Part shown: one piece after another, positions 14,569-52,393 of the stretch
Layout: each line of letters begins with the position of its first letter
Position numbering within the stretch: the stretch's first letter is position 1
DNA from: Clostridia bacterium
GTDB lineage: Bacteria; Bacillota; Clostridia; Christensenellales; Borkfalkiaceae
Length of the DNA stretch: 56,047 nucleotides
Direction of reading: 5' to 3'
NCBI GenBank assembly: GCA_029061465.1
Contig: JAIDRY010000176.1
Coordinates: 1 to 56,047, forward strand
Translations under genes and position numbers: made by a program
The notes under the pieces: generated by a model
Told to the model about the DNA's origin: nothing
Seen by the model: only the letters and a program-made list of their open reading frames with translations
Database searches by the model: none

Positions 14569-14612
14569 CACGAAAAATTGCCGTCGCAGAATAGACGGCA
14601 ATTTTTGTGAAC
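14569..14612 (-). terminator. long hairpin terminator after uxaC (copy 1 of a repeated 44-nt element)
   Basis: CACGAAAAATTGCCGTC-GCAGAATA-GACGGCAATTTTTGTGAAC. It forms a 16-17 bp stem with a 1-nt bulge. The T-run on the minus strand lies immediately after the uxaC stop (14616). Confidence 0.7.
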
Positions 14613-14615
14613 TGT

Positions 14616-32484: not shown

Positions 32485-32571
32485 GCCCGAGTGGTGGAAT
32501 AGGCAGACGCAAGGGACTTAAAATCCCTCGGTAGAAATACCGTGCCGGTTCAAGTCCGGCCTCGGGCACCA
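32485..32571 (+). tRNA. tRNA-Leu (anticodon UAA), class II with long variable arm, encoded CCA
   Basis: Acceptor stem GCCCGAG/CTCGGGC. Anticodon stem AGGGA/TCCCT with loop CTTAAAA. Variable arm CGGTAGAAATACCG. T-arm GCCGG-TTCAAGT-CCGGC. 3' end ACCA. Confidence 0.93.
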
Positions 32572-34339: not shown

Positions 34340-34396
34340 GTATCCTTATTCGGACAGGCGGTTTTCTATTTTACCGCGCCCTTATAGCTTTGAATA

Positions 34397-34639
34397 CTAT
34401 GTTCTCTTTTCATTGCATGTTCCTCCTTCTGAGTTATTTGTATTCAGTTGTTCTTTTAATGCTGTCCAGCCCACATAAATAAGCTGGACTTTTTGTATGC
34501 GGTTGGCTTTAAGGAACTTGTTCAATTCCTCAAAGTCTTCGCGTTTCATTGAGGTTCCCCAAACCGCGTGGGCGGCTTTGCGTTCCTCTTTGTGTTTGTC
34601 TTCGTAACGTTTGTCTATTTCCGACTTCGGTTGTTTCAT
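34397..34639 (-). CDS. small basic hypothetical protein (mobile-element associated)
   Basis: 80-aa ORF that overlaps the upstream TnpV-like gene by 4 nt. No motif recognised. Confidence 0.4.
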   Translation of the reverse strand: MKQPKSEIDKRYEDKHKEERKAAHAVWGTSMKREDFEELNKFLKANRIQKVQLIYVGWTALKEQLNTNNSEGGTCNEKRT

Positions 34640-35010
34640 ACGACTTCCTCCGTATAAATTAGTTCGCTTAAAATTTCTTCTTCGATTGCGTGTTGCAGAG
34701 CGGTCCGTCTGCGGTAATCTTCCATAAACTCACCCGTCCGTTTGTACTGCGGAGAGAGGGAGAGTTTTGCGTAGAGGACGTTGTACATATCCTCGGCTTG
34801 CTTGTCCACGCCGTGAAGATAGGCGGGAAGGTCGGCTATCGTCCAGTCGAGTCCTTTGTCTTCCAGATATTTGTGTTTGAGCGTTCCGTACTTGCCGTAA
34901 ACGTGCTTTTGCGGTTTCACAAGTTGTTGATACCGTTTGATTTCGTCTATGGTCAATCCCTCGTTTCTTTCGGTTTTTGCCAATAATTTTTTGTCTGTCA
35001 TCTTCTGCAA
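34636..35010 (-). CDS. tnpV: TnpV-like transposon-associated protein
   Basis: 124 aa. The pattern YGKYGTLKHKYLEDKG...YLHGVDKQAEDMYNVLYAKL...ALQHAIEEEILSELIY resembles the TnpV proteins of clostridial mobilisable transposons. Confidence 0.55.
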   Translation of the reverse strand: MQKMTDKKLLAKTERNEGLTIDEIKRYQQLVKPQKHVYGKYGTLKHKYLEDKGLDWTIADLPAYLHGVDKQAEDMYNVLYAKLSLSPQYKRTGEFMEDYRRRTALQHAIEEEILSELIYTEEVV

Positions 35011-35086
35011 ACACCTCCGATAAAAAATGTTAATACGATTATAACGATCCGGTTCCGAATGTCAAGAATATAATTAATAAAATTTT

Positions 35087-35992
35087 TTAATCTTCATCCT
35101 CATCTTCGTCCGGCATATACAGTTGGTCGTATTCGTCACCTTCGTAACGGTTGTATCTTCGCTTTTGTGCGTCGCAAGTGTACCAAGTGGGCGATAAGCT
35201 TTCTCCACGTTTGACGTGATAGTTTTCTGAAACCTGCTGATAAAAGTCTTCTTGTAAAGAAGAGTATGTGGTTTCTCCGCCACGTTCTTTCCAGAATTGG
35301 TAGTGAGATAGGAAAGGCTTAGAAGAATAAACGGTTTCATATATAAAGTTGCCATTTAAATCTTTAGCCTGCAAGTAACCGCCGCTTGGACTGCGTTCGT
35401 GACTGTAAATTTTTCTTTGCATACTGTTTGTTACGGGCAAGTAGTAAACTTCTAAAACGTGCCTGTTTTCTTTTTCCAATACATAGGCGAACATTATGTT
35501 TCTGTCTGTTCCATTATAACCTATATATCGAATAGCAAAACCGTAACACCACTTGAAGTACTGTAATCTTTCTTCGTCACTCATATCTTCCCAGAACTCA
35601 CTGTTCCCACCGAAAGCCATACACTCATAGTAAATACTGCGTTTTGTCTTATGGAATTGTAAATTCATTTCGTTAAATACCTGTTGCCAGCTTTCTTCAA
35701 AAGTTAGTGCTTTGGGCTTAAAGAACATAACGGCATATTCAGCATAACAGCTCTCTAAATACTCGTCCATTTTAACGAAGTCCTGTTTATGGGTAATAAT
35801 AGAAACAGTTGCATGTGGCGGACGTGGATAAAGCTGTATGCGCTTACCGTCTACGTACATATAGTTTTTAGACTCTTCGATAAGATACCCGTCCGCATCT
35901 CTGTAAATTTTATATCTTTTAATAATATACCTCCTAATTATTTTTAGCCGCTTGACATTAAAACTTTCTTGTAGTATTATGATAATGAACAT
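35087..35992 (-). CDS. hypothetical protein, acidic C-terminus; distant Mob/Pre (MobV)-like pattern; start uncertain
   Basis: 301-aa ORF. The ATG at 35992 lies inside repeat copy 1. An in-frame AGGAGG (35935..35930) suggests a downstream start, and the next ATG is at 35860. The segment QYFKWCYGFAIRYIGYNGTDRNIMFAYVLEKENRHVLEVYYLPV resembles the MobV block around HxDExxPHxH, but the histidines are not conserved. Confidence 0.45.
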   Translation of the reverse strand: MFIIIILQESFNVKRLKIIRRYIIKRYKIYRDADGYLIEESKNYMYVDGKRIQLYPRPPHATVSIITHKQDFVKMDEYLESCYAEYAVMFFKPKALTFEESWQQVFNEMNLQFHKTKRSIYYECMAFGGNSEFWEDMSDEERLQYFKWCYGFAIRYIGYNGTDRNIMFAYVLEKENRHVLEVYYLPVTNSMQRKIYSHERSPSGGYLQAKDLNGNFIYETVYSSKPFLSHYQFWKERGGETTYSSLQEDFYQQVSENYHVKRGESLSPTWYTCDAQKRRYNRYEGDEYDQLYMPDEDEDED

Positions 35993-36115
35993 TACATTTG
36001 ATAAAATAAACTCTCGTCAGAGAGAGCAATATTATTGTGATAATGAACACCAAGAACTATAAAAGAAAGCCGCTGTTACTTGGCTACATTTGCATTATAT
36101 CACGATAATGAACAC
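35981..36115 (+). repeat. three direct copies of GATAATGAACA in a divergent intergenic region (operator/iteron-like)
   Basis: Copies lie at 35981..35991, 36039..36049 and 36104..36114, spaced 58 and 65 bp apart. The extended contexts are ATTATGATAATGAACATT, ATTGTGATAATGAACACC and ATCACGATAATGAACACT. Confidence 0.75.
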
Positions 36116-36143
36116 TTGTCAAGAGGTTTAATTACATTTTTTT

Positions 36144-36971
36144 ATGAAAAAAGAAAATAATAACGAAATTATTTCAAATTTAAAGTTGGGACAAGAAACC
36201 TTTTCACGCAATATTGGTTTAAGTAAGCAAATATACTTTGGCTTAACTTATGAAGATATTACAAGATATACCGGTATTCCGCAACCTACTATGCTTTCTT
36301 ATGATAAATACTGGGTGTCACCTTATATCTCTGTTGCAAAACAAATAGCAGAATTGTACTGTGTAGATTTAGATACGTTTTGTCGTAAAGATATAGGCTT
36401 TTATAAAGTTGAGCAATTCCAATTGCTTAAAAGATTTGTAAGTAGAGTAGGCGGAGATTACAGCAATATTAAAGAAAAAATAAACGGTTGGATAGAAGAG
36501 CAGTTAAGTGTAAATGAACTCGGTATCTATGAGGAAATAAACAATCAACTAAAAGCAGAGATAGCAAGACTCAATAAAGAAGAACGTGCTGTTGAAATAA
36601 AAAGAGATGACAGAATTGCTGAAAACTTTTCAAGAAACTTTAACAACTTACATAAAAATTTATGTGTCAGTTACAGAAAGATAAGCACTGCATTGGATAT
36701 TTCCATAGGCAACTTAACTCGCCTTAAAAAAGGCGGTGAGCCTATGCTTGAAACTGTTATTAAACTGTCGGCATTTTTCGGTACAACAATAGAGCAAATG
36801 ATTTCAGATAGTCCTGATTTCCATTACGGATACTTGCAACAAGAAGTAGGAAAGTTTAATAATAGATTTGGTGAAATATCTTCTGAAGACATACATTTAT
36901 ATAACCACAAGAAGGCAAATCTATTACCCAAAGAGCAAGCAAAGAAACTTGTTGACGAGTTACTTAATTAA
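36144..36971 (+). CDS. transcriptional regulator with two XRE/Cro-C1-type HTH domains
   Basis: 275 aa. HTH 1 is near LTYEDITRYTGIPQPTMLSYDKY. HTH 2 is near VSYRKISTALDISIGNLTRLKKGGEPMLETVIKLSAFFGTTIEQMI. A coiled-coil linker joins them. Confidence 0.7.
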   Translation: MKKENNNEIISNLKLGQETFSRNIGLSKQIYFGLTYEDITRYTGIPQPTMLSYDKYWVSPYISVAKQIAELYCVDLDTFCRKDIGFYKVEQFQLLKRFVSRVGGDYSNIKEKINGWIEEQLSVNELGIYEEINNQLKAEIARLNKEERAVEIKRDDRIAENFSRNFNNLHKNLCVSYRKISTALDISIGNLTRLKKGGEPMLETVIKLSAFFGTTIEQMISDSPDFHYGYLQQEVGKFNNRFGEISSEDIHLYNHKKANLLPKEQAKKLVDELLN

Positions 36972-36983: not shown

Positions 36984-37011
36984 AAGGTGTGGAGCATAAC
37001 CACACCTTTTT
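36984..37011 (+). terminator. intrinsic terminator
   Basis: Stem AAGGTGTGG (36984..36992) pairs with CCACACCTT (37000..37008), followed by a T-run. It lies 13 nt after the stop at 36971. Confidence 0.8.
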
Positions 37012-37094: not shown

Positions 37095-37123
37095 TTGACA
37101 TTAATATTATATTTTGATAGAAT
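37095..37123 (+). promoter_or_regulatory. sigma-70/SigA-type promoter of operon A
   Basis: TTGACA (37095..37100), a 17-nt spacer, then TAGAAT (37118..37123). It lies ~40 nt upstream of the ATG at 37162. Confidence 0.6.
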
Positions 37124-37161
37124 AAGTTCGTTAAAAATAGTTTAATTTTGGATGGTGTGTT

Positions 37162-37689
37162 ATGACAACAAAATTATTTGAACGATTGGTTACAAAATTC
37201 TCTATCAAAGTAACGGATTTAATTAAATATCTAGAGATATCTAAGGCGACAATTTATAATTACCGTAACTTGGATAGATTTGCGGATATTCCCAAGGACA
37301 AGCAGTTAAAGATACTGTATCTTTTCGGTAAAGAAACAGAAGAGGAGCTTGAGCTCGTTTTAGATGAGTCTGATGCTGAGATACTAAATAAATATTTAAA
37401 TCGTATTTCGAGCATATTGACTGACAGTATCAATGGTAAAAAGGAAGAGATAGCATCGCTTGAAGAACTGACAATACAGAATGAAAGATTATTGAAAGAA
37501 AATGCTTCCCTGCAAAGGCAGTTAGTTGCTTTGCAAAAATTTTCCGGTATGGACGAATTTGCACGGGCAATTTTATTTGATAAAGTTTCGGAAATCGTTG
37601 TTGGTGCAAGTGCTGCCGAGATGAAAGAATTTATTGATTACATTGATATTTTTTCTAAATACCGCAAGTACACCGAAAGCAAAAATTAA
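37162..37689 (+). CDS. HTH DNA-binding protein with coiled-coil C-terminal half (first gene of operon A)
   Basis: 175 aa. N-terminal HTH (VTDLIKYLEISKATIYNYRN) followed by a heptad-like region (LEELTIQNERLLKENASLQRQLVALQ). Its stop lies 13 nt before the helicase start. Confidence 0.6.
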   Translation: MTTKLFERLVTKFSIKVTDLIKYLEISKATIYNYRNLDRFADIPKDKQLKILYLFGKETEEELELVLDESDAEILNKYLNRISSILTDSINGKKEEIASLEELTIQNERLLKENASLQRQLVALQKFSGMDEFARAILFDKVSEIVVGASAAEMKEFIDYIDIFSKYRKYTESKN

Positions 37690-37702
37690 AAGGGGCGAAT
37701 AA

Positions 37703-40700
37703 ATGGCATATCTTTATTTGAATTTTGTTGATAATTTGGAATCGGGAAGTCGTAATCCAAACGATTTATATAACACGTCGCTCAATGAACAATATGAAGC
37801 GCTTAAACGCAAAATTGGCGGAACTTATTCGGGGACATTGCAAGAGTTTATTGCGCATTATTGTCCTATAACTGAAAACGAGTATTATCTATCTTTACCG
37901 AGCTTTGACAGAGGAATACGCACCGTTGTAAATAAAAACGGCAAAGAAAACAAGTACATAAACAATATTATTATCCGCCCGATGAAGAAGAAATACGCAC
38001 ACAACGTGCTACCGGAGAATTACGAATTAATTCTGATTGGTGACGTTATGTTTGGAAGCGTTATTTCGGTTTTGATAAAGGGGATTGATATAATTGACAG
38101 CTCCATCGAAAAATTCGGTGAAATGAGAATCATTTGCACTGCCGCGTGTGCATTTTCGAAAACGATGCTTCGTATGGGGGCAACCGTTCCCGATTATGGC
38201 ACAACGGAATTGCATAATTCAGTGCTGACTAATGACTTTGTTGACGAGCTATGCAATGAATTGTATCCGGTTCCAAATCCGAAAGAAGCCCTGAAAACAT
38301 TTGATGAGTGGCAAAGATACATAGATTTCAGGAAGTATTATTTAAATAAACAATCGGAAAGATGTGAAGCTATTTCTGCTGTGGAAGTTTGCGATTCATA
38401 TATGATATCGCGTGAAGCGTATAGGCGTAATGAGGAAGACTACAAGTCGCTTTTGCTTGATGGTATTCCACAATTTGCAAAGGGTGAGCAGGTAATTCTA
38501 TCAAAAGAAGTTCAGGGTGCAGAGAGCTTCCCTTTGATACGCATAGATATAGATAAAAACCGCAAAGAAGTTTTAAGAGTAACCACGGGGAAGAACGGCA
38601 AAGGTAAACCTAAATTCGAAGCTGATTTAAATAGATATACGCGTGATGCAATGGGATTATCAGCTACCGAGCCGAGATACGTTAACGGCGATTTGCCTAA
38701 GGGATTTCGTTTTTATCAATACGTTTTAGGGGAAAGATATTTATTCACGTCTATTGATATTGAACCTGACTGTGAAGCAATTGATAAAAAATTTGAAAAG
38801 AATTGTAAAACGGCGGAAAAGTCAATCGATGAAAAATACGCTTCTATAATAGCGGTTGAATTAAACCGTTTTATGAACGCGCAAACTCCTGCGGTTACGG
38901 CACGGTATACCAAGCAATTTGACGAATACGTAAGCTCATTAAATAATGCGCTTGAAAACGAAGTTCGTGCAAACAGTGACAAAGAGGTGCAAAAAGAGTT
39001 TGAGCGAGCCGAAAAAGAACTGACTGCGCCGATTAAAAACGTGTTCGAAAGGGAACGCAAAGAATTTGAACGCAAGCTTTCCAAGTTAAACAAGGGTAAA
39101 GACGATAAGGATATTGCGCATATCCAAATCGAAATTTCATTATTGGAAGATAAGTACGAAAAGGATTGTGCGAATGCGACGCGTAAACTGAATATCCGTG
39201 ACTTCTATTTAAAGAGAAACGCGAAATTAATTGACAATAAGCGCAAAAGTACCGATATTGCCCTTCAGGTAGAATTGAAAAGAATAAAACAGGAAAAAGA
39301 AGAGCAATTAAAAGCGCAGTACCGTGAATCAATTCGTGCGGAGAAAGAAACAAGCAAAAAAGAATTGAAGCAAAAGTGTGAGGAGGAAAAGGCATATAAA
39401 ATCGATGACGAAACTATTCGTCGTTATTGCATCTATTTCCGCCCCGACGATACAAATAAAACGCTGAAAAATCTTGAAAAGGAAATCGAGGGATTAGGAG
39501 CCCGCTATCTGACTTATGATAACCGGGCAGAAAAGGCAAAGATAGAACGTCAGGAAAAAGCACTTGCTTCTTTTATGGGCGGTTACGTAAAGAATCCATA
39601 TTTGGCTGCATACTTATTTGCGCCGCAGTCGCTCGGTCAAACACCGAGAGCAGTTGGTCAAGAAATAGATTGGTGTTGTGGTTTAAACGACAGACAACAA
39701 GCAGCTGTAACTAAGGCGCTTGCAAGTGAAAGCTTATTCTTGTTGCAGGGACCTCCGGGAACGGGTAAAACACAAGTAATTGCAGAAATTACCGCACAGC
39801 TTTGTCGCAGAGGGAAGAAGGTTTTAATTTCATCTGAAACGCATAAAGCTATCGATAACGTGTTTGAACGCCTTCCTAAAATTCCGGAAATAAGGCCACT
39901 TAGACTCATTCCGTCGCAAAACGGTAAGGAAACCAATTACAGTCCGGAGAAATTGGTTGATAACTTCTATTTGAATATATCCCGTAACCTTGAAAAGCAG
40001 GTTGACAGGTATGAACACTTTGAGGAAACGAAAGAGTCTTTCAATGAAACAATGAACAAGCTTCGTTTGGGTTACGAAAGAGTTCTAAGGTTAAAAAGAC
40101 AAATCGGGCAAGTGGAGCGTGAACGTAAAGACATTTCCGACAATATAAGCAAATTGAATGAAATAATTGACCGTTTGCGCGGAGAACTGTCCGTAGTGCT
40201 TACAGAAGTAGAACGTTACAAAAGAACGGTAAAATATATTGAAGCATATAGATTTAGTGCCGAAGATGTCAAAGAACAATATATTGAAGCGTTTGTAAGG
40301 AATATAGAAGTTTTACTCTCTAAGTATGATTGTTTTAAAGAATTATCCAAAGAAAAAGCGGGTGAGCTTGTAAAATTAGATTTAACGATGGTAAAGGCTG
40401 AGCTTGAAAAACTTTTGTCGGAAGATGTGCTTGTAAAGCTAAAAAATCGTCAGAAGGAATTAAGAGATATTCTTTCAGAGCTGCGCGACCCTGAAACCGA
40501 CGAAGCTCCTCAGGAAGGCGACGCGCATTTTGCAGAGTATAAAAAATATCAAAGTGAATTAAGATCTGTTGTTAATGATATTAAAAGGGCACAGGAAGAA
40601 AGCGAGTTCGATACGTCGGAAAGTGTTATATTTGCGATTTTGCCGCATATTACTAACGATAAATTGAAAAGGCTGTTAGAAGAGCTTACTGCGTTCAAGA

Positions 40701-42289
40701 TAGAAGCGCAACGCACCGTAATCGAATTCAAAGACAAAATTGAGACGGATATAAAATCCGTTCTTAAAAAGCAAGACGGACTCGAAAGCGATATAAGCGA
40801 GAAGCAGCTTGCTATAAGCGGTGAAAAGAGAAAGTATGAAGAGCTTGGCGAAAATCAAACCCTTGCCGAGTATAATGAGCTTAATTCCGTATTAAAGCAG
40901 AGCGTGTCGCGGTTTATACGTGATTTTAATATCGTGCGCGAATATAATCCCGACGATATGGAAGAGGCGTTCTCAATTATTGCCGAGGAGTGGAAAGCAA
41001 TTGAGAAAGATTATCAATCCACACTGACGGAGAATAAAACCAAAATACCGATGTATCGGGGTATTTGTAAGTATCTTGCACAACCGGACATTTTAGAGGA
41101 GGACAGACAGGCGTATACCCGTGCGCTTTTCGATAATGTCAACGTATTCGGTATAACCTGCACGAGCCGAGATAAATTTACGGATGCCCAGAATGAAGAA
41201 CTTCGCCGCTATGGTATCAAGGACGTAAATATACGAACACAAGGAATTGATGTTGTTATTATAGACGAGGTTTCCAAGTCTGCTTTCCTTGATTTGCTTA
41301 TACCTATTTTGTATGGAAAAACCGTTATACTTGTGGGTGACCACAGGCAGCTTCCGCCGATGTACGATTTGCGCCATATGAGAGCGGACGACTTCGAGGG
41401 GCTGGATGAGAGCATTATCACGAAAGAAATAAACGATAAGTACACGGCTTTATATGAGGAATGTTTCTTCAAAACGTTGTATGAAAAAGTTTCCGATGAT
41501 TTCAGAGTAATGCTCAATAAACAGTATCGTTGCCATAGTCATATTATGGAGGTATTCAATCATTTCTATGGCGGCAGTCAAAAGGGATTGACGGTAGGAA
41601 CAAAGCAGCAGGACAACGAAAAACAGCATAATCTAACGGTTCGTTTTGGCGGAAATACCGTTATAGACCCGCAGCATCATATTTATTTTGTTGATTGTGA
41701 AGAGCGTGAATCGAGTGCTTACGAAGGAAGTACGTCTAAAGTTAACGAGCAGGAAGCGCAGGTCGCAATAGAGTTGTTACGTCAGCTCGATAACGCAAGC
41801 GGAGAGCTCGTTAAATCAGGTAAATTCAAAGTCAATAAAGAAAGACGAATAGATGAGCGTCCGAGCGTTGGCGTTATTTGTACTTACGGTGATCAGGCGG
41901 GACTTATCAAGAAAAAGCGTAAAAACAAACAATTCAATAATTTCTCTGGTAAACAGGACGAAAAACTGATAATAAGTACCGTGGATGATTTTCAAGGTGA
42001 TGAGCGTGATATAATAATCCTTTCTATGGTAAGAAATCCTGCGGGAAAGAATTTCGATTTGGAGTTTCTTAAAAAATTCGAACGTATCAACGTGGCGTTG
42101 TCTCGTGCCAGAAAATTGTTGATAGTGGTTGGTGCGCGTAAATTCTTGTCCGATAACGGTATTATCGATTTGCCCGATTTGGAAGGCAAAGGTAAAGGAC
42201 AGCAGAATTTCCACGTGTACAGGAAAATTATTGACACAATCGATTTCAAAGGAAGAATTATTCCTGCACGTGATATCATAGGAGAATGA
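37703..42289 (+). CDS. large SF1 helicase, Upf1/DNA2-like (AAA_11/AAA_12 type), with ~680-aa N-terminal extension and ~500-aa coiled-coil insertion
   Basis: Walker A LLQGPPGTGKTQ (GPPGTGKT = 39749..39772, K689). Walker B VVIIDEVSK (DE = 41264..41269, D1188). Motif III LVGDHRQLPPM, motif IV-like QYRCHSHI, motif V STVDDFQGDERDIIILS, motif VI RINVALSRARKLLIVVG. Confidence 0.85.
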   Translation: MAYLYLNFVDNLESGSRNPNDLYNTSLNEQYEALKRKIGGTYSGTLQEFIAHYCPITENEYYLSLPSFDRGIRTVVNKNGKENKYINNIIIRPMKKKYAHNVLPENYELILIGDVMFGSVISVLIKGIDIIDSSIEKFGEMRIICTAACAFSKTMLRMGATVPDYGTTELHNSVLTNDFVDELCNELYPVPNPKEALKTFDEWQRYIDFRKYYLNKQSERCEAISAVEVCDSYMISREAYRRNEEDYKSLLLDGIPQFAKGEQVILSKEVQGAESFPLIRIDIDKNRKEVLRVTTGKNGKGKPKFEADLNRYTRDAMGLSATEPRYVNGDLPKGFRFYQYVLGERYLFTSIDIEPDCEAIDKKFEKNCKTAEKSIDEKYASIIAVELNRFMNAQTPAVTARYTKQFDEYVSSLNNALENEVRANSDKEVQKEFERAEKELTAPIKNVFERERKEFERKLSKLNKGKDDKDIAHIQIEISLLEDKYEKDCANATRKLNIRDFYLKRNAKLIDNKRKSTDIALQVELKRIKQEKEEQLKAQYRESIRAEKETSKKELKQKCEEEKAYKIDDETIRRYCIYFRPDDTNKTLKNLEKEIEGLGARYLTYDNRAEKAKIERQEKALASFMGGYVKNPYLAAYLFAPQSLGQTPRAVGQEIDWCCGLNDRQQAAVTKALASESLFLLQGPPGTGKTQVIAEITAQLCRRGKKVLISSETHKAIDNVFERLPKIPEIRPLRLIPSQNGKETNYSPEKLVDNFYLNISRNLEKQVDRYEHFEETKESFNETMNKLRLGYERVLRLKRQIGQVERERKDISDNISKLNEIIDRLRGELSVVLTEVERYKRTVKYIEAYRFSAEDVKEQYIEAFVRNIEVLLSKYDCFKELSKEKAGELVKLDLTMVKAELEKLLSEDVLVKLKNRQKELRDILSELRDPETDEAPQEGDAHFAEYKKYQSELRSVVNDIKRAQEESEFDTSESVIFAILPHITNDKLKRLLEELTAFKIEAQRTVIEFKDKIETDIKSVLKKQDGLESDISEKQLAISGEKRKYEELGENQTLAEYNELNSVLKQSVSRFIRDFNIVREYNPDDMEEAFSIIAEEWKAIEKDYQSTLTENKTKIPMYRGICKYLAQPDILEEDRQAYTRALFDNVNVFGITCTSRDKFTDAQNEELRRYGIKDVNIRTQGIDVVIIDEVSKSAFLDLLIPILYGKTVILVGDHRQLPPMYDLRHMRADDFEGLDESIITKEINDKYTALYEECFFKTLYEKVSDDFRVMLNKQYRCHSHIMEVFNHFYGGSQKGLTVGTKQQDNEKQHNLTVRFGGNTVIDPQHHIYFVDCEERESSAYEGSTSKVNEQEAQVAIELLRQLDNASGELVKSGKFKVNKERRIDERPSVGVICTYGDQAGLIKKKRKNKQFNNFSGKQDEKLIISTVDDFQGDERDIIILSMVRNPAGKNFDLEFLKKFERINVALSRARKLLIVVGARKFLSDNGIIDLPDLEGKGKGQQNFHVYRKIIDTIDFKGRIIPARDIIGE

Positions 42290-42290
42290 T

Positions 42291-44498
42291 ATGGAAGAGA
42301 AAATAATAAAACAGATAAAAACTCAATGCCCTTTTCCGCTGTTGATTTATAAGACGCGTATTAAGTATAACGAAGTGCGTAAAGCTTCGGGCATAGCATA
42401 TATTCTATTAGAGCTTATCACCAAGCAACGTTCGGATATGCGTTTTCGTGAAGCATTGTTAAAATTCGGAATACCGGCAGAACTTCACAGTTTGTTTGGA
42501 AGTGAACTTGCTGGCTTAGTCAATAATGAAATAGTTCAGGCAAACTATCCTGCATCGCACTTTGCAAATCCTAAATATTTCGGTGAAATCCAAGTCAACG
42601 ACGTTACTCTTACTGTTAAGGGACAAAAACTGTTCCGCGAGGGCGCAATTCCTACGGGACAGGAGAAGGAAAGGCCAAAGGATATTTATTTCAGTCCCGT
42701 AACGCGTAAATTCGAAGTGCAGTATAATATGCCGTATTCGCCGATTTCCGGTAGTTTTTTGGGCGAGGAGTTTTTGGACAAAGTAGATATTGATATCAGC
42801 GGTTTAGAAGATTATATTAATGCGAATCCCACGAAATTAGGATTGAAAGCCGAAGAGCGTATGATATCTTTTGCAACGGACGAACCGCAAAAAATGAATG
42901 TCCGAAAAGAAGATAACATCACTTTAAATATCTACCCGTCGTTTATAGAGTTTATGTTTGCTGATTCGGCAGAAAGGGCATTCTTTGATAAATATTACTC
43001 TTCTTCGATAATGACGAATGGTATGACCATGAAAGATAAGTTTAAATTCCCTAAGTTAAATGGGAATTTGCTGTCTGTTAATATAACGGATATACGCAAT
43101 CTTACTGCGCTTTATTTACCTAACGAGCTAACCAAACAGGCAGGGCGGCAATGTGTAATATTCTTGCATAGAGGTAATGCGGGTTTAGAACGTGACGATG
43201 TGATTTGCGCGGACAAGCGGTTTGCTTGTGAATTACTTGATAAAATAGACAAAAATGCGCAATTCGCGTTGTTGGACAAGTCAGGGTGCAAAATTTTTTG
43301 TGCGGTAAATGTAGTTATGCCGTGCAAGAATTTCGGAGATGTGCTTACTCTACCACTTTTGACAGAAAGCAATGCGTCCCTCGAAACGTTCCGTGGAATA
43401 GTTGACTGTCTCTATAATGAATACGCAGAAAAACCGTTCGACGACGATGTCGGCAAGGTTGTGTCGTACGCAGTTGAGAGCTTGGGTAATACTGAATACT
43501 TCGGTAAAATAATCAAGAAGAAATTGCAATCGGTAGTCAGGGTGGATGAACGGATAGAAATATTATTAAAGCTGAATTCGGCTTTCAAAAAATATCCATC
43601 GTGGAAAAATGACTTTACGGAAGCGGCTATCGGGCTTTATAACGAAAGCGTGAGCGAAGTTAAAATTGAAAATATCATTTATAAAAATACTGTTTTGACT
43701 CCGCTGAAAGGTGCCCTGCAAATTTCCAATTCGGAATACGTTCGCAAGTTTTCTGAAAACATTTGTAAAACCGAATCCAAAGAAATTGTTTACGAAGCAC
43801 TTGATTCTGCGGGCTTTACCGATATGGAAACACTGTCGGTTGCAAACGTAATAGAAACGTTTATGTCAAACGTTTTAGCAAGAGAAGTAATTGCTTCCGA
43901 AACCGTGCTTGCTTCCAAATATAAGACGGTACATACAAATCTTTGGAAGTTGTGTGATATGCTTGGTATTGAAAACAGCGCGGAATATACCTTGCGCGAA
44001 GATTACAATACAGATGACTTCTTTAATGCCTACGCCACGCTACAAAACGTAATAAAAGCAGTAGAGAAATATAGACCTTTTGCGCCCAAAGAATATGAAT
44101 TATTGGGGCGATATCTTGAGATATTCGAGCCGATTCACGAGCTTTTGTCTATCGAATGTACCGCTTCGGCAAATCCCGAAAAGATTACAAAAAAATATAT
44201 TGACGATTATATCACAAGAGGAAAGTATAAGGACGCAATTTGCGATTTGCTTGTAAAGCTGCAATATGATTTAAGAAAACTTTTGCAGGCAGACAGAGAA
44301 ACGCAAGCCAACGAACTTATTGATATGGCGCTTAACGAAAAGCTTATTTCTAAACCGCAAGTTGATGTGTTACATAAACTGCGTATGTGCAGAAACGGTT
44401 TTCAACATCCCGAGCGAAAACAAATTCCGTTCGATAAACCCACAATAGAAAATTGGCGAGATATCGTATTTATGTTAGGAGGGAAAAATGAGTCATAG
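42291..44498 (+). CDS. 735-aa uncharacterised protein with C-terminal RNxxxH (HEPN-like) motif
   Basis: The start lies 1 nt after the helicase stop, with an AGGAG SD. No known N-terminal domain recognised. The C-terminal helical region ends in LHKLRMCRNGFQHPE, where R701-N-G-F-Q-H706 is encoded at 44391..44408. Confidence 0.6.
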   Translation: MEEKIIKQIKTQCPFPLLIYKTRIKYNEVRKASGIAYILLELITKQRSDMRFREALLKFGIPAELHSLFGSELAGLVNNEIVQANYPASHFANPKYFGEIQVNDVTLTVKGQKLFREGAIPTGQEKERPKDIYFSPVTRKFEVQYNMPYSPISGSFLGEEFLDKVDIDISGLEDYINANPTKLGLKAEERMISFATDEPQKMNVRKEDNITLNIYPSFIEFMFADSAERAFFDKYYSSSIMTNGMTMKDKFKFPKLNGNLLSVNITDIRNLTALYLPNELTKQAGRQCVIFLHRGNAGLERDDVICADKRFACELLDKIDKNAQFALLDKSGCKIFCAVNVVMPCKNFGDVLTLPLLTESNASLETFRGIVDCLYNEYAEKPFDDDVGKVVSYAVESLGNTEYFGKIIKKKLQSVVRVDERIEILLKLNSAFKKYPSWKNDFTEAAIGLYNESVSEVKIENIIYKNTVLTPLKGALQISNSEYVRKFSENICKTESKEIVYEALDSAGFTDMETLSVANVIETFMSNVLAREVIASETVLASKYKTVHTNLWKLCDMLGIENSAEYTLREDYNTDDFFNAYATLQNVIKAVEKYRPFAPKEYELLGRYLEIFEPIHELLSIECTASANPEKITKKYIDDYITRGKYKDAICDLLVKLQYDLRKLLQADRETQANELIDMALNEKLISKPQVDVLHKLRMCRNGFQHPERKQIPFDKPTIENWRDIVFMLGGKNES

Positions 44499-45600
44499 TG
44501 TTGAAATAGATTATCAAGGGCTTGCAATTCAATGCAATAGTGTTTGTGAAGTTGCGGAAAAACGATTGCAAGAGTTGGACGAAATGATTGCAAAAGCAGA
44601 GAGCGCTTCAAGCCGTTTATTAAACGACCAATCTGCACAATTTGTCAAAATGATTTATGAAGAAAGAAAACGACTGGAAAAACAAATCAAAGCCGTTCGA
44701 CAAAGTGCTGAGGGAAAAGCTAAGCGCGGAGTTGTGCGTGTTGATAATGAAAGTGCAGAATATAGACATTCGAACGACAATATTCTGGCTGCGGGGAATT
44801 TGCAACACACCATTGACGAGCTTGCTTCTAAACGATTGATTGAATTTCAAAGTCTTTTGCAAACCCTTTTAGGTGAAAGTATACAAGAACACCAGCGTAA
44901 ACTGCGTGAACAAACTAACGGTGCAATAACGGTTGATTCTCACACTCAATCACACTTGGACAAGATTGAAGACGAGGTTCTTCGCCAGTTTACTTATCTT
45001 GCATATTTGAATGACAATACACTTTCGGGCGATGAATTGTTGCAAGCGGGACAAGTGCTTATGATGCAGAGAGTAAATCAAACTTATGAAGAGCGTTATG
45101 AACAAGAACGTGCAAAAATCCGTGCCGAACTTGAAGCTTCGCGTGTTGCCCCCGAAACGGTGGATAAAGTGCTGAATAAAACACAAGGCACGGCACAAGA
45201 AAAACTTACGTCAATTCGCCAAAATGCTACTGCCGAAATTGTCGGTGAAAAGGTGCGTCAGAAGTCGCTTAAAATTATAATGGACGCTATCAAACAACGT
45301 GGATTTGTTGTTGACAAGAAGAACGTTAAAATTAAACGAGATACAAATGAAGTTGTTTTGGTTGCATTAAAGGCAAGCGGAGAAAAAGCGGAGTTTCGAA
45401 TATTCCTCGATGGTAAATTCATTTACGATTTCCATGGTTATGAGGGACAGGCTTGTCAAAAGGATATAGAACCGTTTATGCACGATTTGGAAGAAGTATA
45501 CGGCATAAAAGTAACCAAACAAACAGAAATCTGGAGCAATCCTGATAAAATTTCTACTATGAAGTATCAGGCAATAAACACCAATAAGAATAAAAGATAA
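44488..45600 (+). CDS. 370-aa coiled-coil protein with small C-terminal alpha/beta module
   Basis: Its ATG overlaps the upstream stop by 11 nt, with a GGAGGG SD. Long heptad-rich, Gln/Glu/Lys-rich helices span aa ~20-260. The C-terminal ~100 aa read IMDAIKQRGFVV...EFRIFLDGKFIYDFHGYEGQACQKDIEPFMHDLEEVYGIKV. Confidence 0.55.
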   Translation: MSHSVEIDYQGLAIQCNSVCEVAEKRLQELDEMIAKAESASSRLLNDQSAQFVKMIYEERKRLEKQIKAVRQSAEGKAKRGVVRVDNESAEYRHSNDNILAAGNLQHTIDELASKRLIEFQSLLQTLLGESIQEHQRKLREQTNGAITVDSHTQSHLDKIEDEVLRQFTYLAYLNDNTLSGDELLQAGQVLMMQRVNQTYEERYEQERAKIRAELEASRVAPETVDKVLNKTQGTAQEKLTSIRQNATAEIVGEKVRQKSLKIIMDAIKQRGFVVDKKNVKIKRDTNEVVLVALKASGEKAEFRIFLDGKFIYDFHGYEGQACQKDIEPFMHDLEEVYGIKVTKQTEIWSNPDKISTMKYQAINTNKNKR

Positions 45601-45611
45601 GGAGAAATATA

Positions 45612-47444
45612 ATGGCACTTACTACAACCTTTAACAGATTAAGACGTGAAATTGGTATTAAAAGATGTGTAATCGTTGAGGGAAACGTCGGCGACGTTTA
45701 TTTAAATGAGAAGAAACAAATAGTTGACTTGAAGCAGTATCTTATGGATATGCTTAAAGCTATTGACTACGATGATGTGCTTTATTGGGATAGAATTGAC
45801 GGTGTGGACGGAGACATATCTCGCCTTTCGGTTATCGATGAAGTGGAAGTAGAGGGTGAAGCTTATGTCTTTTATGATGAAGACGATAAGTCAGAAAAAG
45901 AACAAAAGACAGGCAGCGGACTTTTCAAAGAGCCCGCCGAGATATTTAATATCATTTTTAAAAATTTGAAAAAGCCCAACCGCAAAACCGCATTTGTTTT
46001 GAACTGGGCAGATTATTTGTTTACGACGGGTGGGCAACTGCCGCCCGACGAGCGTGAACTTATTACGCTTCTTGGGAAAGCAATCAAGGATAAAAAAGTT
46101 GACTATCTTTCTGCTGAAGTGAATGAAAGTACAATCGTACTCATTACGAGCAAGCTTGCTATGTTCCCGATATCGTTCTATCAGGGCAATCCCGAAGTGT
46201 CTTGTCTCACGCTTTCAAAGCCCGACAGAGAAGAACGCGAAAAAATGATGGATAAAGTGGAAAGCGGATTTGAGGTTAAGTTAAAACCCGGCGAAACACT
46301 TATGACTTGCGAAAAGAAGAATGAGTATATCGATATGCTTGATGATTTTACAAACCGTGAAATTATTCAGCTTGCGAGACTTTCACGCAAAGAGGGTAAA
46401 ATGCCATTTGAACAGTTATATCTGTTGTTCAAGTACGGTGAAAAGGATAACCCTTGGGAAAAACTTGACTATAAGGCTGTAAAAGATATTAAGAAAATTC
46501 TTGCCGAGCGGGTAGTCGGACAGGAAGAAGCCATCGAAAAAATTGAGAAAGTCGTTGTGAAGGCGTATATGGGGCTTACCGGAATCCATAAATCTTCCAG
46601 TCGTTCCGCGCCCAAAGGTGTGTTGTTCTTCGTCGGTCCTACCGGTGTTGGTAAAACCGAACTTTCAAAAGCTCTTGCAAAATTTCTGTTCGGTGACGAG
46701 CAGGCTTGTATTCGCTTTGATATGTCAGAGTATGCGCAGGAAAACAGTGACCAAAAGCTTATCGGTGCGCCTCCCGGATACGTGGGATATGAAGAGGGCG
46801 GTCAGCTTACAAATGCAGTAAAAGAAAAGCCGTTCAGTATTATTCTGTTCGACGAGATAGAAAAAGCAGCAAAGCCTAATCCCCGTATTTTGGATATTTT
46901 CTTGCAAATTCTTGAAGACGGACGTCTTACCGACAGTAAGGGTGAAACGGTTTATTTCAGTGAAAGCGTTATTATCTTTACGTCAAACCTCGGCGCTTCG
47001 GAAGTGGCTTCGGGCGGTTCCAACGAACAGGTTGCCAAGGAGTTTATTGATATTGTCAAAAACTATTTCGACAATGAAATCAAGCGCCCCGAAATTTTGG
47101 GACGTATCGGTTACAGCAATATAGTTCCGTTCAATTTCATCAAAGACAGGGATTTTACCGTTAAAATAGCAAAATCAAAACTTCGTCCTGTTCAGAAAGC
47201 GATTCTCGAAAAATATAGGATAGACCTAATTTTTGAAGATGAACTGAAATTTATTGACTATATTTTGGGCGGTGCGGATAGCAGTAAGGGTGGTCGTGAT
47301 ATTCTTAATGCAATCAATGATAAGCTTTTGGACGAGCTTGCAATGTTTATGTTCGAAAACAAGCAGGATTTATCGTCGTTCAAGGGCGCAAAAATCGTAG
47401 TCAGCGTATCGAAAGATAAACTGCATTTTGAATTTGATGATTAA
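45612..47444 (+). CDS. AAA+ ATPase with Clp/Hsp100 D2-type module and degenerate N-terminal AAA-like domain
   Basis: The C-terminal half is colinear with ClpB/ClpA D2: VVGQEEAIEKI, Walker A GPTGVGKT (46635..46658, K348), IRFDMSEY, GAPPGYVGYEEGGQLT, Walker B ILFDEIEKA (D414/E415), ILEDGRLTD, sensor-1 IIFTSNLG. The N-terminal ~290 aa lack Walker motifs. Confidence 0.85.
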   Translation: MALTTTFNRLRREIGIKRCVIVEGNVGDVYLNEKKQIVDLKQYLMDMLKAIDYDDVLYWDRIDGVDGDISRLSVIDEVEVEGEAYVFYDEDDKSEKEQKTGSGLFKEPAEIFNIIFKNLKKPNRKTAFVLNWADYLFTTGGQLPPDERELITLLGKAIKDKKVDYLSAEVNESTIVLITSKLAMFPISFYQGNPEVSCLTLSKPDREEREKMMDKVESGFEVKLKPGETLMTCEKKNEYIDMLDDFTNREIIQLARLSRKEGKMPFEQLYLLFKYGEKDNPWEKLDYKAVKDIKKILAERVVGQEEAIEKIEKVVVKAYMGLTGIHKSSSRSAPKGVLFFVGPTGVGKTELSKALAKFLFGDEQACIRFDMSEYAQENSDQKLIGAPPGYVGYEEGGQLTNAVKEKPFSIILFDEIEKAAKPNPRILDIFLQILEDGRLTDSKGETVYFSESVIIFTSNLGASEVASGGSNEQVAKEFIDIVKNYFDNEIKRPEILGRIGYSNIVPFNFIKDRDFTVKIAKSKLRPVQKAILEKYRIDLIFEDELKFIDYILGGADSSKGGRDILNAINDKLLDELAMFMFENKQDLSSFKGAKIVVSVSKDKLHFEFDD

Positions 47445-47982
47445 GTTTAACATTGCAAGTATCAATCAATGTACCGAAGTAGAAGGACCGTATAAAAGAC
47501 TATGCATTTGGTTTCAAGGTTGCAATATTCACTGCAAAGGATGTTGTAATCCTGATTACCAGCCGCTCGTGCCGAAGAATATACTTTCGCTTGACAAATT
47601 AATTTTGATTATAGCTGAAGCAAAAGAAAAATTCGGAATAGAGGGAGTAACCTATTCGGGTGGAGAGCCCACTTTGCAACAAAGTTTGTCTCAGCTTACC
47701 GAAGAGATACATAAGCTTGGGTTAGGCGTTATATCGTTTACAGGTAGAAACTACGAGGAAGTAAAAGAAGTTTTGTGCGGTTGTGATGCAGTATTGGACG
47801 GAGCTTTCATCAAGGAATTGCCCGAAACAAAGCGCCGTATACTCGGTTCTTCAAATCAGCGCATATTATGTTTAACTGATAGATATAAAGATTGTATTGA
47901 TAGGTGGTTTACAAGTATCGGATTAAAGACAGAAGAAATTAATGTCGGCAATAGTATAGTAGTGAACGGTGATAAGTTTTGA
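47437..47982 (+). CDS. NrdG/PflA-type radical-SAM activase-like protein (4Fe-4S single-cluster family)
   Basis: EGPYKRLCIWFQGCNIHCKGCCNP, with CxxxCxxC encoded at 47521..47544. SAM-binding-like GVTYSGGEP. C-terminal NrdG-like LDGAFIKE...ILGSSNQRIL. The ATG at 47437 overlaps the upstream stop (ATGATTAA). The ORF track uses an upstream TTG at 47428. Confidence 0.8.
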   Translation: MIKFNIASINQCTEVEGPYKRLCIWFQGCNIHCKGCCNPDYQPLVPKNILSLDKLILIIAEAKEKFGIEGVTYSGGEPTLQQSLSQLTEEIHKLGLGVISFTGRNYEEVKEVLCGCDAVLDGAFIKELPETKRRILGSSNQRILCLTDRYKDCIDRWFTSIGLKTEEINVGNSIVVNGDKF

Positions 47983-48011
47983 CATTAAAAAGGATAATAT
48001 TCTAAATATTA

Positions 48012-48055
48012 GGTGCAGATAACTGTTATAAGCGGTTGTCTGTACCTTTAATTTT
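48012..48055 (+). terminator. intrinsic terminator closing operon A
   Basis: 12-bp stem: GGTGCAGATAAC (48012..48023) pairs with GTTGTCTGTACC (48035..48046), including two G-U pairs. TTTAATTTT follows. Confidence 0.75.
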
Positions 48056-48163
48056 CTGCAAGAACTTGTAGCCAAAAGTGGGATACAAGAATATATCCTA
48101 AGCAGGATAAGGAAAATGCCACAAAGTGGTATTTTCGACGCGTTCACTTCGATCACTCAAAAC

Positions 48164-48183: not shown

Positions 48184-48248
48184 ATATCACTACAGTGATA
48201 TATGTTTGTCGACAAATATTGACTTTGTAAGTTTTCTTATGATATAAT
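48183..48248 (+). promoter_or_regulatory. promoter of operon B with two upstream palindromes (C-box-like operators)
   Basis: Palindrome TATATCACT-AC-AGTGATATA (48183..48202). Perfect palindrome TTTGTCGACAAA (48205..48216). -35 TTGACT (48219..48224), 18-nt spacer, -10 TATAAT (48243..48248). The ATG at 48256 lies only 7 nt after the -10 box and has no SD. Confidence 0.6.
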
Positions 48249-48255
48249 AAATTTT

Positions 48256-48471
48256 ATGAAATCAACTTCATTTTTCGAAACAAAATTAAAACATATCAGA
48301 ACAGCAAAAGGCTATTCTCAAAAGCAACTTGCTGAACTATCAGGTGTGAGCCTACGCTCCATACAAATGTATGAGCAGCGACGAAAAGATATAAACAAAG
48401 CTCAGTCTGATTCGCTGTACCACTTGGCGAAAGTTCTCTGTTGCACAATGGAAGACTTACTGGAAGAATAG
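48256..48471 (+). CDS. small XRE-family HTH protein, controller (C) protein-like
   Basis: 71 aa with HTH YSQKQLAELSGVSLRSIQMYEQRRKDINKAQ. It is the first gene of an RM-like operon and appears leaderless. Confidence 0.7.
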   Translation: MKSTSFFETKLKHIRTAKGYSQKQLAELSGVSLRSIQMYEQRRKDINKAQSDSLYHLAKVLCCTMEDLLEE

Positions 48472-48536
48472 AGTTGTCGAAAAATGTCACAAATAAAGCA
48501 AAATTAATGTCTAATATCTAAAGTGGGGGAAATCAA

Positions 48537-49196
48537 ATGAAATGTCTTTATGAGTTAAATGTTGAGCAGCTTTATAAACTAGTTGAAGAAGATTTGAGCC
48601 TTGATGGCTGGATTATCTGGAACGAGACCCTTGCGAAGCGAACGGAGTCCGCGCGAGAGCTTAAGCGGTTTGATATTATAAAAGATAAAGCAATCGAACA
48701 AGGTTTTATTAATATTGATAATGAAATTGTTACATGGTTTGATACTTTAACTATGTTATACCGTTCGCTCAAAAATATCAGTGATTTAGAATTAAAAGAC
48801 AATTTAAAAATATTCCAAGAATTCCGTATGCCGTATTCTCGAAGAAGAGCAGATTATGTGCTTGTATATGATAACAAAATTTTAATTTTAGAGTTTAGTT
48901 TTGATAAACTTGGATATGCGCAGAAATATGAAGACAAATTACAGCAGGCAAGTAGTTACAAAGAAATACTAGGAGTATTTTTACCAAAAGAAATAGATAT
49001 AGGCACATATACATTTTTGATTGATCCAGACGAAGATAAAGACGGCAGATTTATTTACGATCCAGAAACCAAACGTCGAGTAAATGATGATAAAGTAGAA
49101 GAACTGGCAACAGTGATAGTAAAATTTTTCAAAAAGAATTTAAAGTCGGCATATAACGCATTAAAGCATTTAGATTATGGCGATGGGAATGGGTAA
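48537..49196 (+). CDS. hypothetical protein with PD-(D/E)xK-like core pattern
   Basis: 219 aa. FQEFRMPYSRRRADYVLVYDNKILILEFSFDK fits the E...D...(E-x-K) layout of restriction-endonuclease-fold domains. The final triad reads E-F-S, with a K four residues later. Confidence 0.4.
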   Translation: MKCLYELNVEQLYKLVEEDLSLDGWIIWNETLAKRTESARELKRFDIIKDKAIEQGFINIDNEIVTWFDTLTMLYRSLKNISDLELKDNLKIFQEFRMPYSRRRADYVLVYDNKILILEFSFDKLGYAQKYEDKLQQASSYKEILGVFLPKEIDIGTYTFLIDPDEDKDGRFIYDPETKRRVNDDKVEELATVIVKFFKKNLKSAYNALKHLDYGDGNG

Positions 49197-49242
49197 GCCT
49201 ATTCAATGGTGAAATTTTAAAGAAAATTTATAAGGAATTCAA

Positions 49243-52389: not shown

Positions 52390-52393
52390 GCAT

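Follow-up and report, generated by a model that had tools for sequence, protein, structure and literature searches.

Which kind of system is encoded by a tightly packed operon that combines a giant helicase, a predicted RNase, a Clp-type ATPase and a radical S-adenosylmethionine (radical-SAM) protein? The operon lies at positions 37162 to 47982 on the forward strand of a 56,047-nucleotide contig from a Clostridia bacterium of the Borkfalkiaceae (JAIDRY010000176.1, assembly GCA_029061465.1), which was analyzed in its entirety and is referred to here as the window. An earlier interpretation made from the letters alone, the sequence-only reading, had described a six-gene unit that matched no named system. 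We found that five of the genes form a core whose order is kept in genomes, on viral contigs and on plasmids, and that the predicted RNase domain of one core protein is a HEPN domain in one branch and a PIN domain in another. The comparisons suggest that the cassette is probably an undescribed, RNA-targeting defence (conflict) system that moves horizontally and is of the abortive-infection type, although any particular role for genes 4–6 is much less certain than this overall assignment.

A conserved five-gene core

The cassette spans ~10.8 kb and consists of six co-directional open reading frames (ORFs), present in the ORF list of the window at the positions originally proposed for them. Gene 1 (37162..37689, + strand as are all six, 175 amino acids) is a variable first gene that probably encodes a regulator with a helix-turn-helix (HTH) and a coiled coil. 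It is followed by gene 2 (37703..42289, 1528 amino acids), an Upf1/IGHMBP2-like helicase of superfamily 1B (SF1B); gene 3 (42291..44498, 735 amino acids), with a C-terminal HEPN domain encoded by nucleotides 43999-44495; gene 4 (44488..45600, 370 amino acids), a long helical/coiled-coil protein; gene 5 (45612..47444, 610 amino acids), a single-ring Clp/Hsp100 D2-type AAA+ ATPase; and gene 6 (47437..47982, 181 amino acids), an NrdG/PflA-type radical-SAM protein. All of the catalytic motifs of the cassette are intact. The six ORFs are real, but the unit that is conserved comprises only genes 2–6, the HTH gene 1 being interchangeable. The domain assignments of the sequence-only reading agree with our profile hits and motifs, and the residues that it named (K689, K348, E415, and C29/C33/C36) sit in the expected motifs.

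To define the distribution of the cassette, one genome per GTDB species (185,579 species representatives) was scanned with one peptide pattern, which gave 64 loci, a lower bound. The hosts belong to at least four phyla and include Clostridia, Bacilli, Erysipelotrichaceae, Mollicutes/'Tenericutes' (with a complete genome, CP017948), Bacteroidales, Cytophagales, and Helicobacteraceae (Campylobacterota). Genes 2, 3, 4, 5, and 6 follow each other in the same order in every genome locus with enough sequence. The whole cassette, again in the same order, is also found on seven IMG/VR viral contigs, which were detected by scanning with an alignment of the AAA+ N-domain; the viral scan with gene 3 alone found nothing. 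No gene-4 match was detected in phage GenBank records, and no copy at the DNA level in E. coli complete genomes. Amino acid identity to the window proteins is 65–93% for gene 5, 62–91% for gene 1, 44–76% for gene 6, 36–78% for gene 2, 31–76% for gene 4, and 20–77% for gene 3. Judged from these ranges, the predicted unfoldase is under the tightest constraint and the putative RNase protein diversifies fastest. Three loci have interrupted reading frames. Genes 2 and 3 are broken into several ORFs in the metagenome-assembled genome of a Malacoplasma sp. (locus L047, 5482-12130), where the breaks are probably due to translation with table 11 in an organism in which TGA encodes Trp, rather than to pseudogenes. 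Gene 3 is split in two in loci L024 and L032, the latter with a run of N.

A second branch of the cassette is carried by plasmids of Pseudomonadota. In a tblastn search of plasmids with gene 4, its C-terminal domain was found on plasmids of Polaromonas, Moellerella (six records), Photobacterium, Leisingera, and Acinetobacter; seven of the ten plasmids with a gene-4 match were typed as conjugative. The five-gene order was read on the Polaromonas, Acinetobacter (pNDM1_010055, NZ_CP032284.1, 8532-18251), and one of the Moellerella plasmids, and the Photobacterium and Leisingera plasmids are represented by gene-4 and gene-5 matches. RefSeq annotation of these copies is generic only. The first gene, an "AAA domain-containing protein", is an SF1 helicase that matches gene 2 at 1e-60 to 1e-70; the second is a "PIN domain-containing protein" of 720–821 amino acids; the third, a hypothetical protein, is gene-4-like (1e-23); the fourth, an "AAA family ATPase", corresponds to gene 5 over its full length (1e-142 to 1e-148); and the fifth, a "4Fe-4S single cluster domain protein", corresponds to gene 6 (1e-30 to 1e-35). 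Conservation of the gene order beyond close relatives, through the 64 loci, the seven viral contigs, and these plasmids, is therefore well documented. We considered that the system might be confined to anaerobes, which would suit an oxygen-sensitive glycyl radical, and rejected this because of the copies on Polaromonas, Acinetobacter, and Rhizobium plasmids.

The surroundings of the cassette are those of mobile DNA. A large serine recombinase gene stands beside the cassette, or within a few kb of the flank that was read, on all seven viral contigs, and near it in eight genome loci. The plasmid copies sit among insertion sequence elements, an integrase, ArdA, and toxin–antitoxin genes. Defence-type neighbours in other loci, listed here case by case, include SIR2-HerA, nSTAND3, AbiEii, type IIG restriction–modification, Csx1/CARF, PDC-S01, T5orf172, and a DpdF/GajB-like double helicase. 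The mobile and defence context proposed for the cassette is thus borne out, with recombinases alongside and often defence genes next door.

The predicted RNase end of gene 3 is swapped between branches

The AlphaFold2 model of the gene 3 protein (predicted local distance difference test score 92) contains N-terminal beta-rich/winged-helix-like domains, a helical repeat body, and an all-helical C-terminal domain (~570–735) with the catalytic motif RMCRNGFQH at 698–706. In an alignment of 56 homologs down to 17% identity, R701, N702, and H706 (LHxLRxxRNxxxHP) are nearly invariant. When C-terminal segments of ~165 residues each were scanned singly, 23 of 27 matched DUF4145 (best 1.6e-8), a HEPN family tied to restriction and abortive-infection systems (PMC3710099). 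Smaller numbers of these segments match the RiboL-PSP, ApeA, HepT, and Swt1 HEPN families. Residue conservation, DUF4145 matches, and the all-helical model together confirm, at the level of sequence and predicted fold, a real HEPN domain with a catalytically intact motif, as the sequence-only reading had proposed.

Gene 3 is the fastest-evolving component of the cassette. Its relatives number 569 at the 90% cluster level and form 170 clusters at 50%, with full-length members down to ~20% identity. In the Pseudomonadota plasmid branch, the counterparts of 720–821 amino acids have a C-terminal PIN domain in place of HEPN. The plasmid PIN proteins gave no pairwise match to gene 3, and profile comparison aligned gene-3 residues 10–245 to their N-termini (hhalign probability 95%, E 2.9e-8); a hidden Markov model of the gene-3 N-terminus matches all three plasmid PIN proteins. 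The N-terminal half is kept and the RNase end is swapped between HEPN and PIN, and gene 3 is therefore marked as the effector. The comparison supports the HEPN-to-PIN swap as the clearest single argument both for an effector role of the 735-residue protein and for membership of a conflict system. A role as RNase effector had been suggested from the HEPN motif, and the swap strengthens it more than the motif does, RNase activity being deduced from the domains. The N-terminal half, kept in both branches, would then be a docking or sensor part. In one gene-3 homolog of 801 amino acids (P0031), the HEPN domain is followed by a fused helix-hairpin-helix module for nucleic-acid binding, a C-terminal extension that matches the RNA polymerase alpha C-terminal domain (PF03118).

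A giant Upf1-like helicase

Gene 2 matches Pfam AAA_11 (1.2e-26) and AAA_12 (2.5e-39), and its nearest solved relatives are IGHMBP2, Upf1, Sen1, and DNA2. The motifs GPPGTGKT (683–690), DEVS (1188–1191), QLPP, and RINVALSRA are intact, and the AAA_11 plus AAA_12 core with motifs I, II, and VI places the protein among the Upf1-like SF1B helicases. The core is preceded by an uncharacterized N-terminal region of ~650 amino acids and contains an insertion of ~320 amino acids in domain 1. Residues 1–360 gave no Pfam match (E <= 1) and no PDB profile match. The best-scoring PADLOC model is MkoA of the Mokosh system (6.4e-93, in two stretches, the better of which, residues 1135–1514, is the helicase core); a second MkoA model scores 7.4e-73 and MkoC 1e-25. 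Against NCBIfam, the helicase scores 82 bits with ProA and 42 bits with Hhe. Apart from this helicase core, no part of the unit strongly resembles a defence-library model.

The AAA+ ATPase and the radical-SAM protein are a pair

Gene 5 matches AAA_2 (4.3e-50), and its residues 292–597 align to the D2 module of ClpC, ClpE, ClpB, Hsp104, and CLPB (~1e-55). A Walker A motif (GPTGVGKT, 342–349), a Walker B motif (FDEIEK, 413–418), and an aromatic pore loop (GYVGY, 389–393) accompany this module and identify gene 5 as a D2-type AAA+ protein. The full-length Clp architecture of N-domain, D1 ring, and middle domain is absent, and the ClpB/ClpA/ClpV models are not reached (ClpB, 251 bits versus a cut-off of 1232). 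The N-terminal ~290 amino acids are family-specific, with no Pfam (E <= 1) or PDB profile match, and comparison of this half with the protein's own D2 by hhalign was not significant (probability 0.2), which does not support a degenerate D1 ring. No ClpP-docking tripeptide was seen by eye. The layout of gene 5 is closer to that of CLPB/Skd3 and other single-ring disaggregases than to that of ClpA or ClpC. Among the components it evolves most slowly, the 65–93% identity given above applying within the HEPN branch, and it retains ~38–43% identity over its full length in Pseudomonadota.

Gene 6 matches Fer4_12 (3.3e-22). Its best NCBIfam model is NrdG TIGR02491 (1.2e-21), which it matches over positions 1–151 of 154 with 77.3 bits versus a cut-off of 126.1; the PFLA model gives 63.2 bits versus a cut-off of 231.75, and the PFL-activase in the PDB 1e-5. 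Among 20 diverse homologs, CxxxCxxC (29–36), GGEP (75–78), GSxNQ (137–141), and (E/L)GPxxR (16–21) are invariant. The window protein has EGPYKR at 16–21 and thus contains the cluster, SAM, and loop motifs of an activase. We take the N-terminal GPxxR loop to be the equivalent of the DGxGxR motif, which holds the protein substrate in glycyl-radical activases, and treat this only as a lead. Neither the window region nor the loci contained an NrdD/PFL-type glycyl-radical enzyme.

The AAA+ and radical-SAM genes form an inseparable, very slowly evolving pair. Full-length gene-5 relatives with a gene-6 relative at their side were also found with giant SF1 helicases of other kinds. In Rhizobium, the plasmid-borne pair stands before the gene of a kinase-helicase of 2086 amino acids, with scores of 489 bits for the NCBIfam "anti-phage protein ProA" model (cut-off 1500) and 332 bits for Hhe. 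Plasmid NZ_CP069422.1 of Aristaeella lactis (1-16000; locus L072) carries the pair in reversed order within a large cluster whose other members are a DUF4011 (Hhe-type) helicase, an FHA protein, two Ser/Thr kinases, a PP2C-type phosphatase, and a DUF6273 protein; from its gene content, the cluster looks like a phospho-signalling variant of a wider family. One Geminocystis plasmid has a gene-5 relative without a detectable gene 6; a 427-amino-acid ORF nearby weakly matches the gene-4 C-terminal domain (9e-6). The constant association is thus a giant SF1 helicase, a Clp-D2 ATPase, and an NrdG-like enzyme. Right after the cassette on Acinetobacter sp. WCHA55 plasmid pNDM1_010055 (locus L071, 13196-15178), there is a second trio, an AAA family ATPase (173 amino acids), a radical-SAM protein (328 amino acids), and a hypothetical protein (162 amino acids), which may be a second radical-SAM cassette.

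Gene 4 has a conserved C-terminal segment

The AlphaFold2 model of the gene 4 protein has helices at 9–269, a small sheet at 273–316, and low confidence for residues 309–370. The last 120 residues are the best-conserved part of the protein, and the invariant residues include Y318, G320, C323, D326, P329, F330, and W349-x-N-P-D. The combination of conservation and low model confidence in region 309–370 is compatible with folding that requires a partner. The Pseudomonadota branch retains the C-terminal domain (1e-23). We found 642 gene-4 relatives at the 90% cluster level, and there is no named function among the gene-3 and gene-4 relatives. Gene 4 has no Pfam or PDB match; similarity of its C-terminal domain to DUF2997 was only a weak lead (one of 14 members, E 0.086). 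In two homologs of 613 and 630 amino acids (P0334 and P0336), the N-terminal coiled-coil segment is repeated three to four times with the C-terminal domain unchanged, which suggests a coiled coil of adjustable length.

The first and last positions of the cassette vary

The HTH of gene 1 is indicated by weak matches only (E ~0.04–0.06, residues 7–41). Relatives of gene 1, with 62–91% identity to the window protein, stand directly upstream of the helicase gene in 17 loci. The same place is taken by an unrelated protein of ~310 amino acids in 18 loci and by another unrelated protein of ~296 amino acids in three, and 10 loci have none of the three forms. That the three are diverged homologs was rejected, as hhalign found no relation between them. 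At the other end, gene 6 is followed with no gap by an RNase III-domain gene (166–170 amino acids) in 11 genome loci or by a DEDDh exonuclease gene in four loci. RNase III also follows gene 6 on four viral contigs, and in the window its place is held by the downstream hairpin. In Tenericutes bacterium MO-XQ (CP017948.1, locus L044, 15631-20412), a 1593-amino-acid protein starts 17 nt after the radical-SAM gene. It consists of a DEAD-box/DpdF-like helicase fused to a UvrD/GajB-like helicase, and may be an optional add-on or an adjacent system.

Operon signals and the island in the window

The junctions between successive genes, from g1-g2 to g5-g6, measure 13, 1, −11, 11, and −8 nt. The last is the 8-nt ATGATTAA overlap if gene 6 starts at ATG 47437, from which it encodes 181 amino acids, the same length as its homologs; the mechanical ORF list places the start at TTG 47428. 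A GGAG-type or G-rich/purine-rich Shine–Dalgarno sequence precedes each of the starts of genes 2–5 (37703, 42291, 44488, and 45612). On the forward strand upstream of gene 1, a terminator-like hairpin (36984..37008, 9-bp stem, then a T run) stands between the unit and the preceding 275-amino-acid double-HTH gene, and is followed by a sigma-70-type promoter-like site, TTGACA-17-TAGAAT (37095..37123, 11 of 12 consensus matches, extended TG), identified by consensus match only. The unit ends in the window with a forward-strand terminator-like hairpin and T-rich tail (48011..48057, hairpin 48011-48047). The region contains 23 terminator-like sites versus 10.7 expected and 43 promoter-like sites versus 36.7 expected; individual sites are only suggestive because such sites are common in AT-rich DNA. 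Signals and gene packing together fit one transcription unit. The ORFs, spacings, Shine–Dalgarno sequences, and promoter- and terminator-like sites of the self-contained, translationally packed operon were all re-found.

The GC content is 0.30–0.43 from ~32 kb onward versus 0.44–0.51 before, and a tRNA-Leu(UAA) gene is located where it drops (32485-32571). An Rfam scan of the window detected tRNA only. No second copy of the tRNA 3' end was found within the window, so the far border of the island is not in view. Between the tRNA-Leu gene and the operon (32607-36971), there are an AAT-family acyltransferase-like gene, an integrase fragment with the N-terminal SAM-like domain only (33629-34339), TnpV (34636-35010), a 301-amino-acid ORF without a family and with an acidic tail (35087-35992), and, directly upstream of the unit, the gene for the 275-amino-acid double-HTH protein (36144-36971). 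This last gene was rejected as part of the unit, because no homolog stands beside the cassette in any other locus.

A second co-directional unit lies directly downstream (48256-55840), with its own promoter-like site (48219-48248). It begins with a 71-amino-acid Xre-type HTH protein and a 219-amino-acid protein with a partial PDC-S41 match. These are followed by a 1048-amino-acid PLD + SF2 helicase + DUF3427 protein (49243-52389), which matches a PADLOC type IV methyl-directed restriction enzyme (1.7e-219), a C5 cytosine methylase (52394-53635), and a 734-amino-acid protein with two GHKL ATPase domains (53636-55840). The GC drop, the integrase fragment, TnpV, and the type IV restriction-like gene agree with the AT-rich tRNA-Leu island, restriction-like operon, and mobile-element remnants that had been described for this locus.

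A possible mechanism

We propose that the proteins of the cassette would assemble into one complex, because the genes overlap or stand 1–13 nt apart. The Upf1-like helicase would load on foreign RNA or on replication/transcription intermediates, acting as sensor and motor, and sensing would release or activate the HEPN (or PIN) RNase of the gene-3 protein, which would degrade RNA and halt translation in the infected cell. The gene-4 coiled-coil protein may be a scaffold that holds the radical-SAM enzyme and the Clp-like hexamer by means of its conserved C-terminal domain. A polypeptide, either a partner subunit or a phage protein, could be threaded through the pore of the Clp-D2 ATPase, and the NrdG-like enzyme could perform a radical reaction on a protein loop, as a licensing step or as a second effector. 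Gene 1 may be a transcriptional regulator, interchangeable between lineages.

A more specific idea, which we regard as a long shot, is that the Clp-D2 hexamer and the NrdG-like enzyme constitute an unfoldase-coupled radical enzyme. The ATPase would feed an unfolded loop to the radical-SAM site, where a glycyl/thiyl-type or other radical modification would be installed that switches on the RNase or destroys the target. The loop could be the invariant, predicted-flexible Y-x-G-x-x-C of gene 4, or could belong to a phage protein. If true, this would be the first immune pathway with a protein-radical step and the first Clp-type motor to have a radical-SAM enzyme, rather than a peptidase, as its partner.

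Alternative functions

The defence role is a prediction, as is the single complex, deduced from gene packing, and several observations weigh against a defence complex of this kind. HEPN and PIN domains occur also in toxin–antitoxin and RNA-processing proteins, and the outer flanks of the cassette also hold ordinary housekeeping genes. Foldseek comparison of the whole gene-3 model with the PDB and BFVD returned helical-repeat noise only (E >= 0.03), and the gene-4 model gave no Foldseek match. A radical-SAM substrate of gene 6 was not found; HGYEG of gene 4 was rejected as a canonical glycyl-radical motif because G317 is replaced by E or K in a whole sub-branch.

The alternative that survives best, although we consider it unlikely, is an addiction or competition module that stabilizes plasmids, prophages, or integrative elements, with an RNase toxin under AAA+/radical-SAM control. 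It would account for the position of the cassette next to or near large serine recombinases and for its carriage on viral contigs and on plasmids, most of them typed as conjugative (7/10), and HEPN and PIN are classic toxin domains. However, ~10.8 kb with a 1528-amino-acid helicase far exceeds the known stabilization modules, and helicase plus nuclease cassettes beside integrases typify defence carried by mobile elements. One cassette could have both roles.

The helicase match raises another alternative, a divergent Mokosh-type system in which HEPN/PIN replaces the PLD nuclease and the other genes are accessory, to which we give little credence. MkoA is the best PADLOC match of the helicase and the logic of helicase plus nuclease is the same, but the match is best in the SF1 core and the first 360 residues are unmatched. 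Four of the five core proteins, which we judge to be more constant than the helicase, have no Mokosh counterpart. The cassette contains no PLD protein, and the nearby PLD gene in the window is type IV restriction-like and is not conserved with the cassette.

We think it quite improbable that the cassette is a housekeeping or stress RNA-surveillance or RNA-repair machine that clears damaged RNA–protein complexes, although its nucleic-acid parts are all of RNA type (Upf1 family, HEPN/PIN, RNase III, and DEDDh). The distribution is patchy (at least 64 of 185,579 species representatives), the window copy lies in a low-GC island and others are carried on mobile elements, and the effector is both fast-evolving and subject to a domain swap. 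Least probable is a biosynthetic or protein-modification cluster, in which the radical-SAM and AAA+ proteins mature a peptide or cofactor in the manner of ribosomally synthesized and post-translationally modified peptides: peptide effectors of conflict systems are in some cases matured by radical-SAM enzymes (PMC7159879; HXS system, PMC13128918), but gene 6 is minimal (181 amino acids, matches limited to Fer4_12 and the radical-SAM core), the conserved core has no precursor-peptide gene, transporter, or peptidase, and the constant partners are a helicase and an RNase.

An RNA-targeting defence system of the abortive-infection type is thus the interpretation that we favour. If this is correct, the cassette would represent a new family that occurs in at least five bacterial phyla, with gut, rumen, and environmental bacteria as hosts and with plasmids, genomic islands, and prophage-like elements as carriers. 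No precedent in immunity is known for the part that varies least, a Clp-type unfoldase with a glycyl-radical-activase-type radical-SAM protein; to our knowledge, the radical-SAM enzymes of defence are limited to Ophion, a peptide maturase, and the viperins, which modify nucleotides. Sensor, effector, and regulator could be dissected by comparing what already differs in nature, namely the HEPN or PIN end, the presence of RNase III, and the three forms of the first gene, and the Pseudomonadota plasmid copies (Acinetobacter, Moellerella, and Polaromonas) make the cassette testable in tractable aerobes.

Comparison with known systems

Scans of PADLOC-DB v2 (2023) and NCBIfam r20 (June 2026) uphold the claim that the gene set matches no named system. 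In these libraries, genes 3 and 4 and the Pseudomonadota PIN and gene-4-like proteins matched no model. Among the systems suggested for comparison, Hachiman, Menshen, and Shango gave no PADLOC match in genes 1–6 (HamA/B, Nsn, or Sng), and for Dpd there was a DpdJ tail match only, to the helicase C-terminus (3.4e-7). No description combining these parts was found in the indexed literature.

The likeness of gene 5 to known defence proteins is confined to its ATPase. It matches the ClpB-like DolB of Dodola (DolA + DolB) at 8.6e-20 and PDC-M37B of the PADLOC candidate PDC-M37 at 3.4e-33, but both matches cover only the generic AAA_2 core (residues 277–468) and leave the N-terminal domain unmatched, and of the proteins scanned, both those of the cassette and those next to it, none matches DolA (DUF6414) or PDC-M37A. 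Gene 6 aligns with NrdG over its whole length and shares the CxxxCxxC, GGEP, and GP..R loop motifs with the NrdG/PflA activases. Unlike these, it is below the cut-off and lacks a nearby glycyl-radical enzyme; it is consistently accompanied by an AAA+ ATPase and a helicase, and aerobes, Polaromonas and Acinetobacter among them, have it too. Like the cassette, prokaryotic viperins and Ophion have a radical-SAM enzyme inside a defence cassette. Gene 6 matches pVip only in the cluster-binding segment (2.5e-6, residues 30–102) and scores 20.8 bits with the NCBIfam viperin model versus a cut-off of 180. Ophion consists of radical SAM, PHP, and PRTase (bioRxiv 10.1101/2025.09.30.679545), and neither it nor the viperins have a helicase, RNase, or AAA+ partner.

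The HEPN abortive-infection RNases (DUF4145, AbiD/F/J, ApeA, and RloC/PrrC-like logic) share with gene 3 the DUF4145-type HEPN domain with its intact R-x4-H motif, whereas in the cassette this domain is the tail of a 735-amino-acid multi-domain protein and is exchangeable with PIN. Hhe (NF042953) and the "anti-phage protein ProA" (NF058533) are related giant SF1 helicases, and the Rhizobium relative is paired with the AAA+/radical-SAM genes. Mokosh type I shares the large Upf1/COG1112-type SF1 helicase as its biggest protein, paired with a nuclease effector in a defence-island cassette. Its nuclease is the PLD protein MkoB, whereas genes 1–6 contain no PLD domain and the effector is instead a HEPN (or PIN) RNase on a separate protein of 735 amino acids; the neighbouring PLD gene of the window (49243-52389) matches MkoB at only 2.7e-5 and is absent from the other loci. 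The coiled-coil, Clp-D2 AAA+, and radical-SAM proteins have no counterpart in Mokosh. By sequence comparison, Mokosh is the closest to the cassette, through the helicase only, and the cassette itself lies outside every described system with which it was compared.

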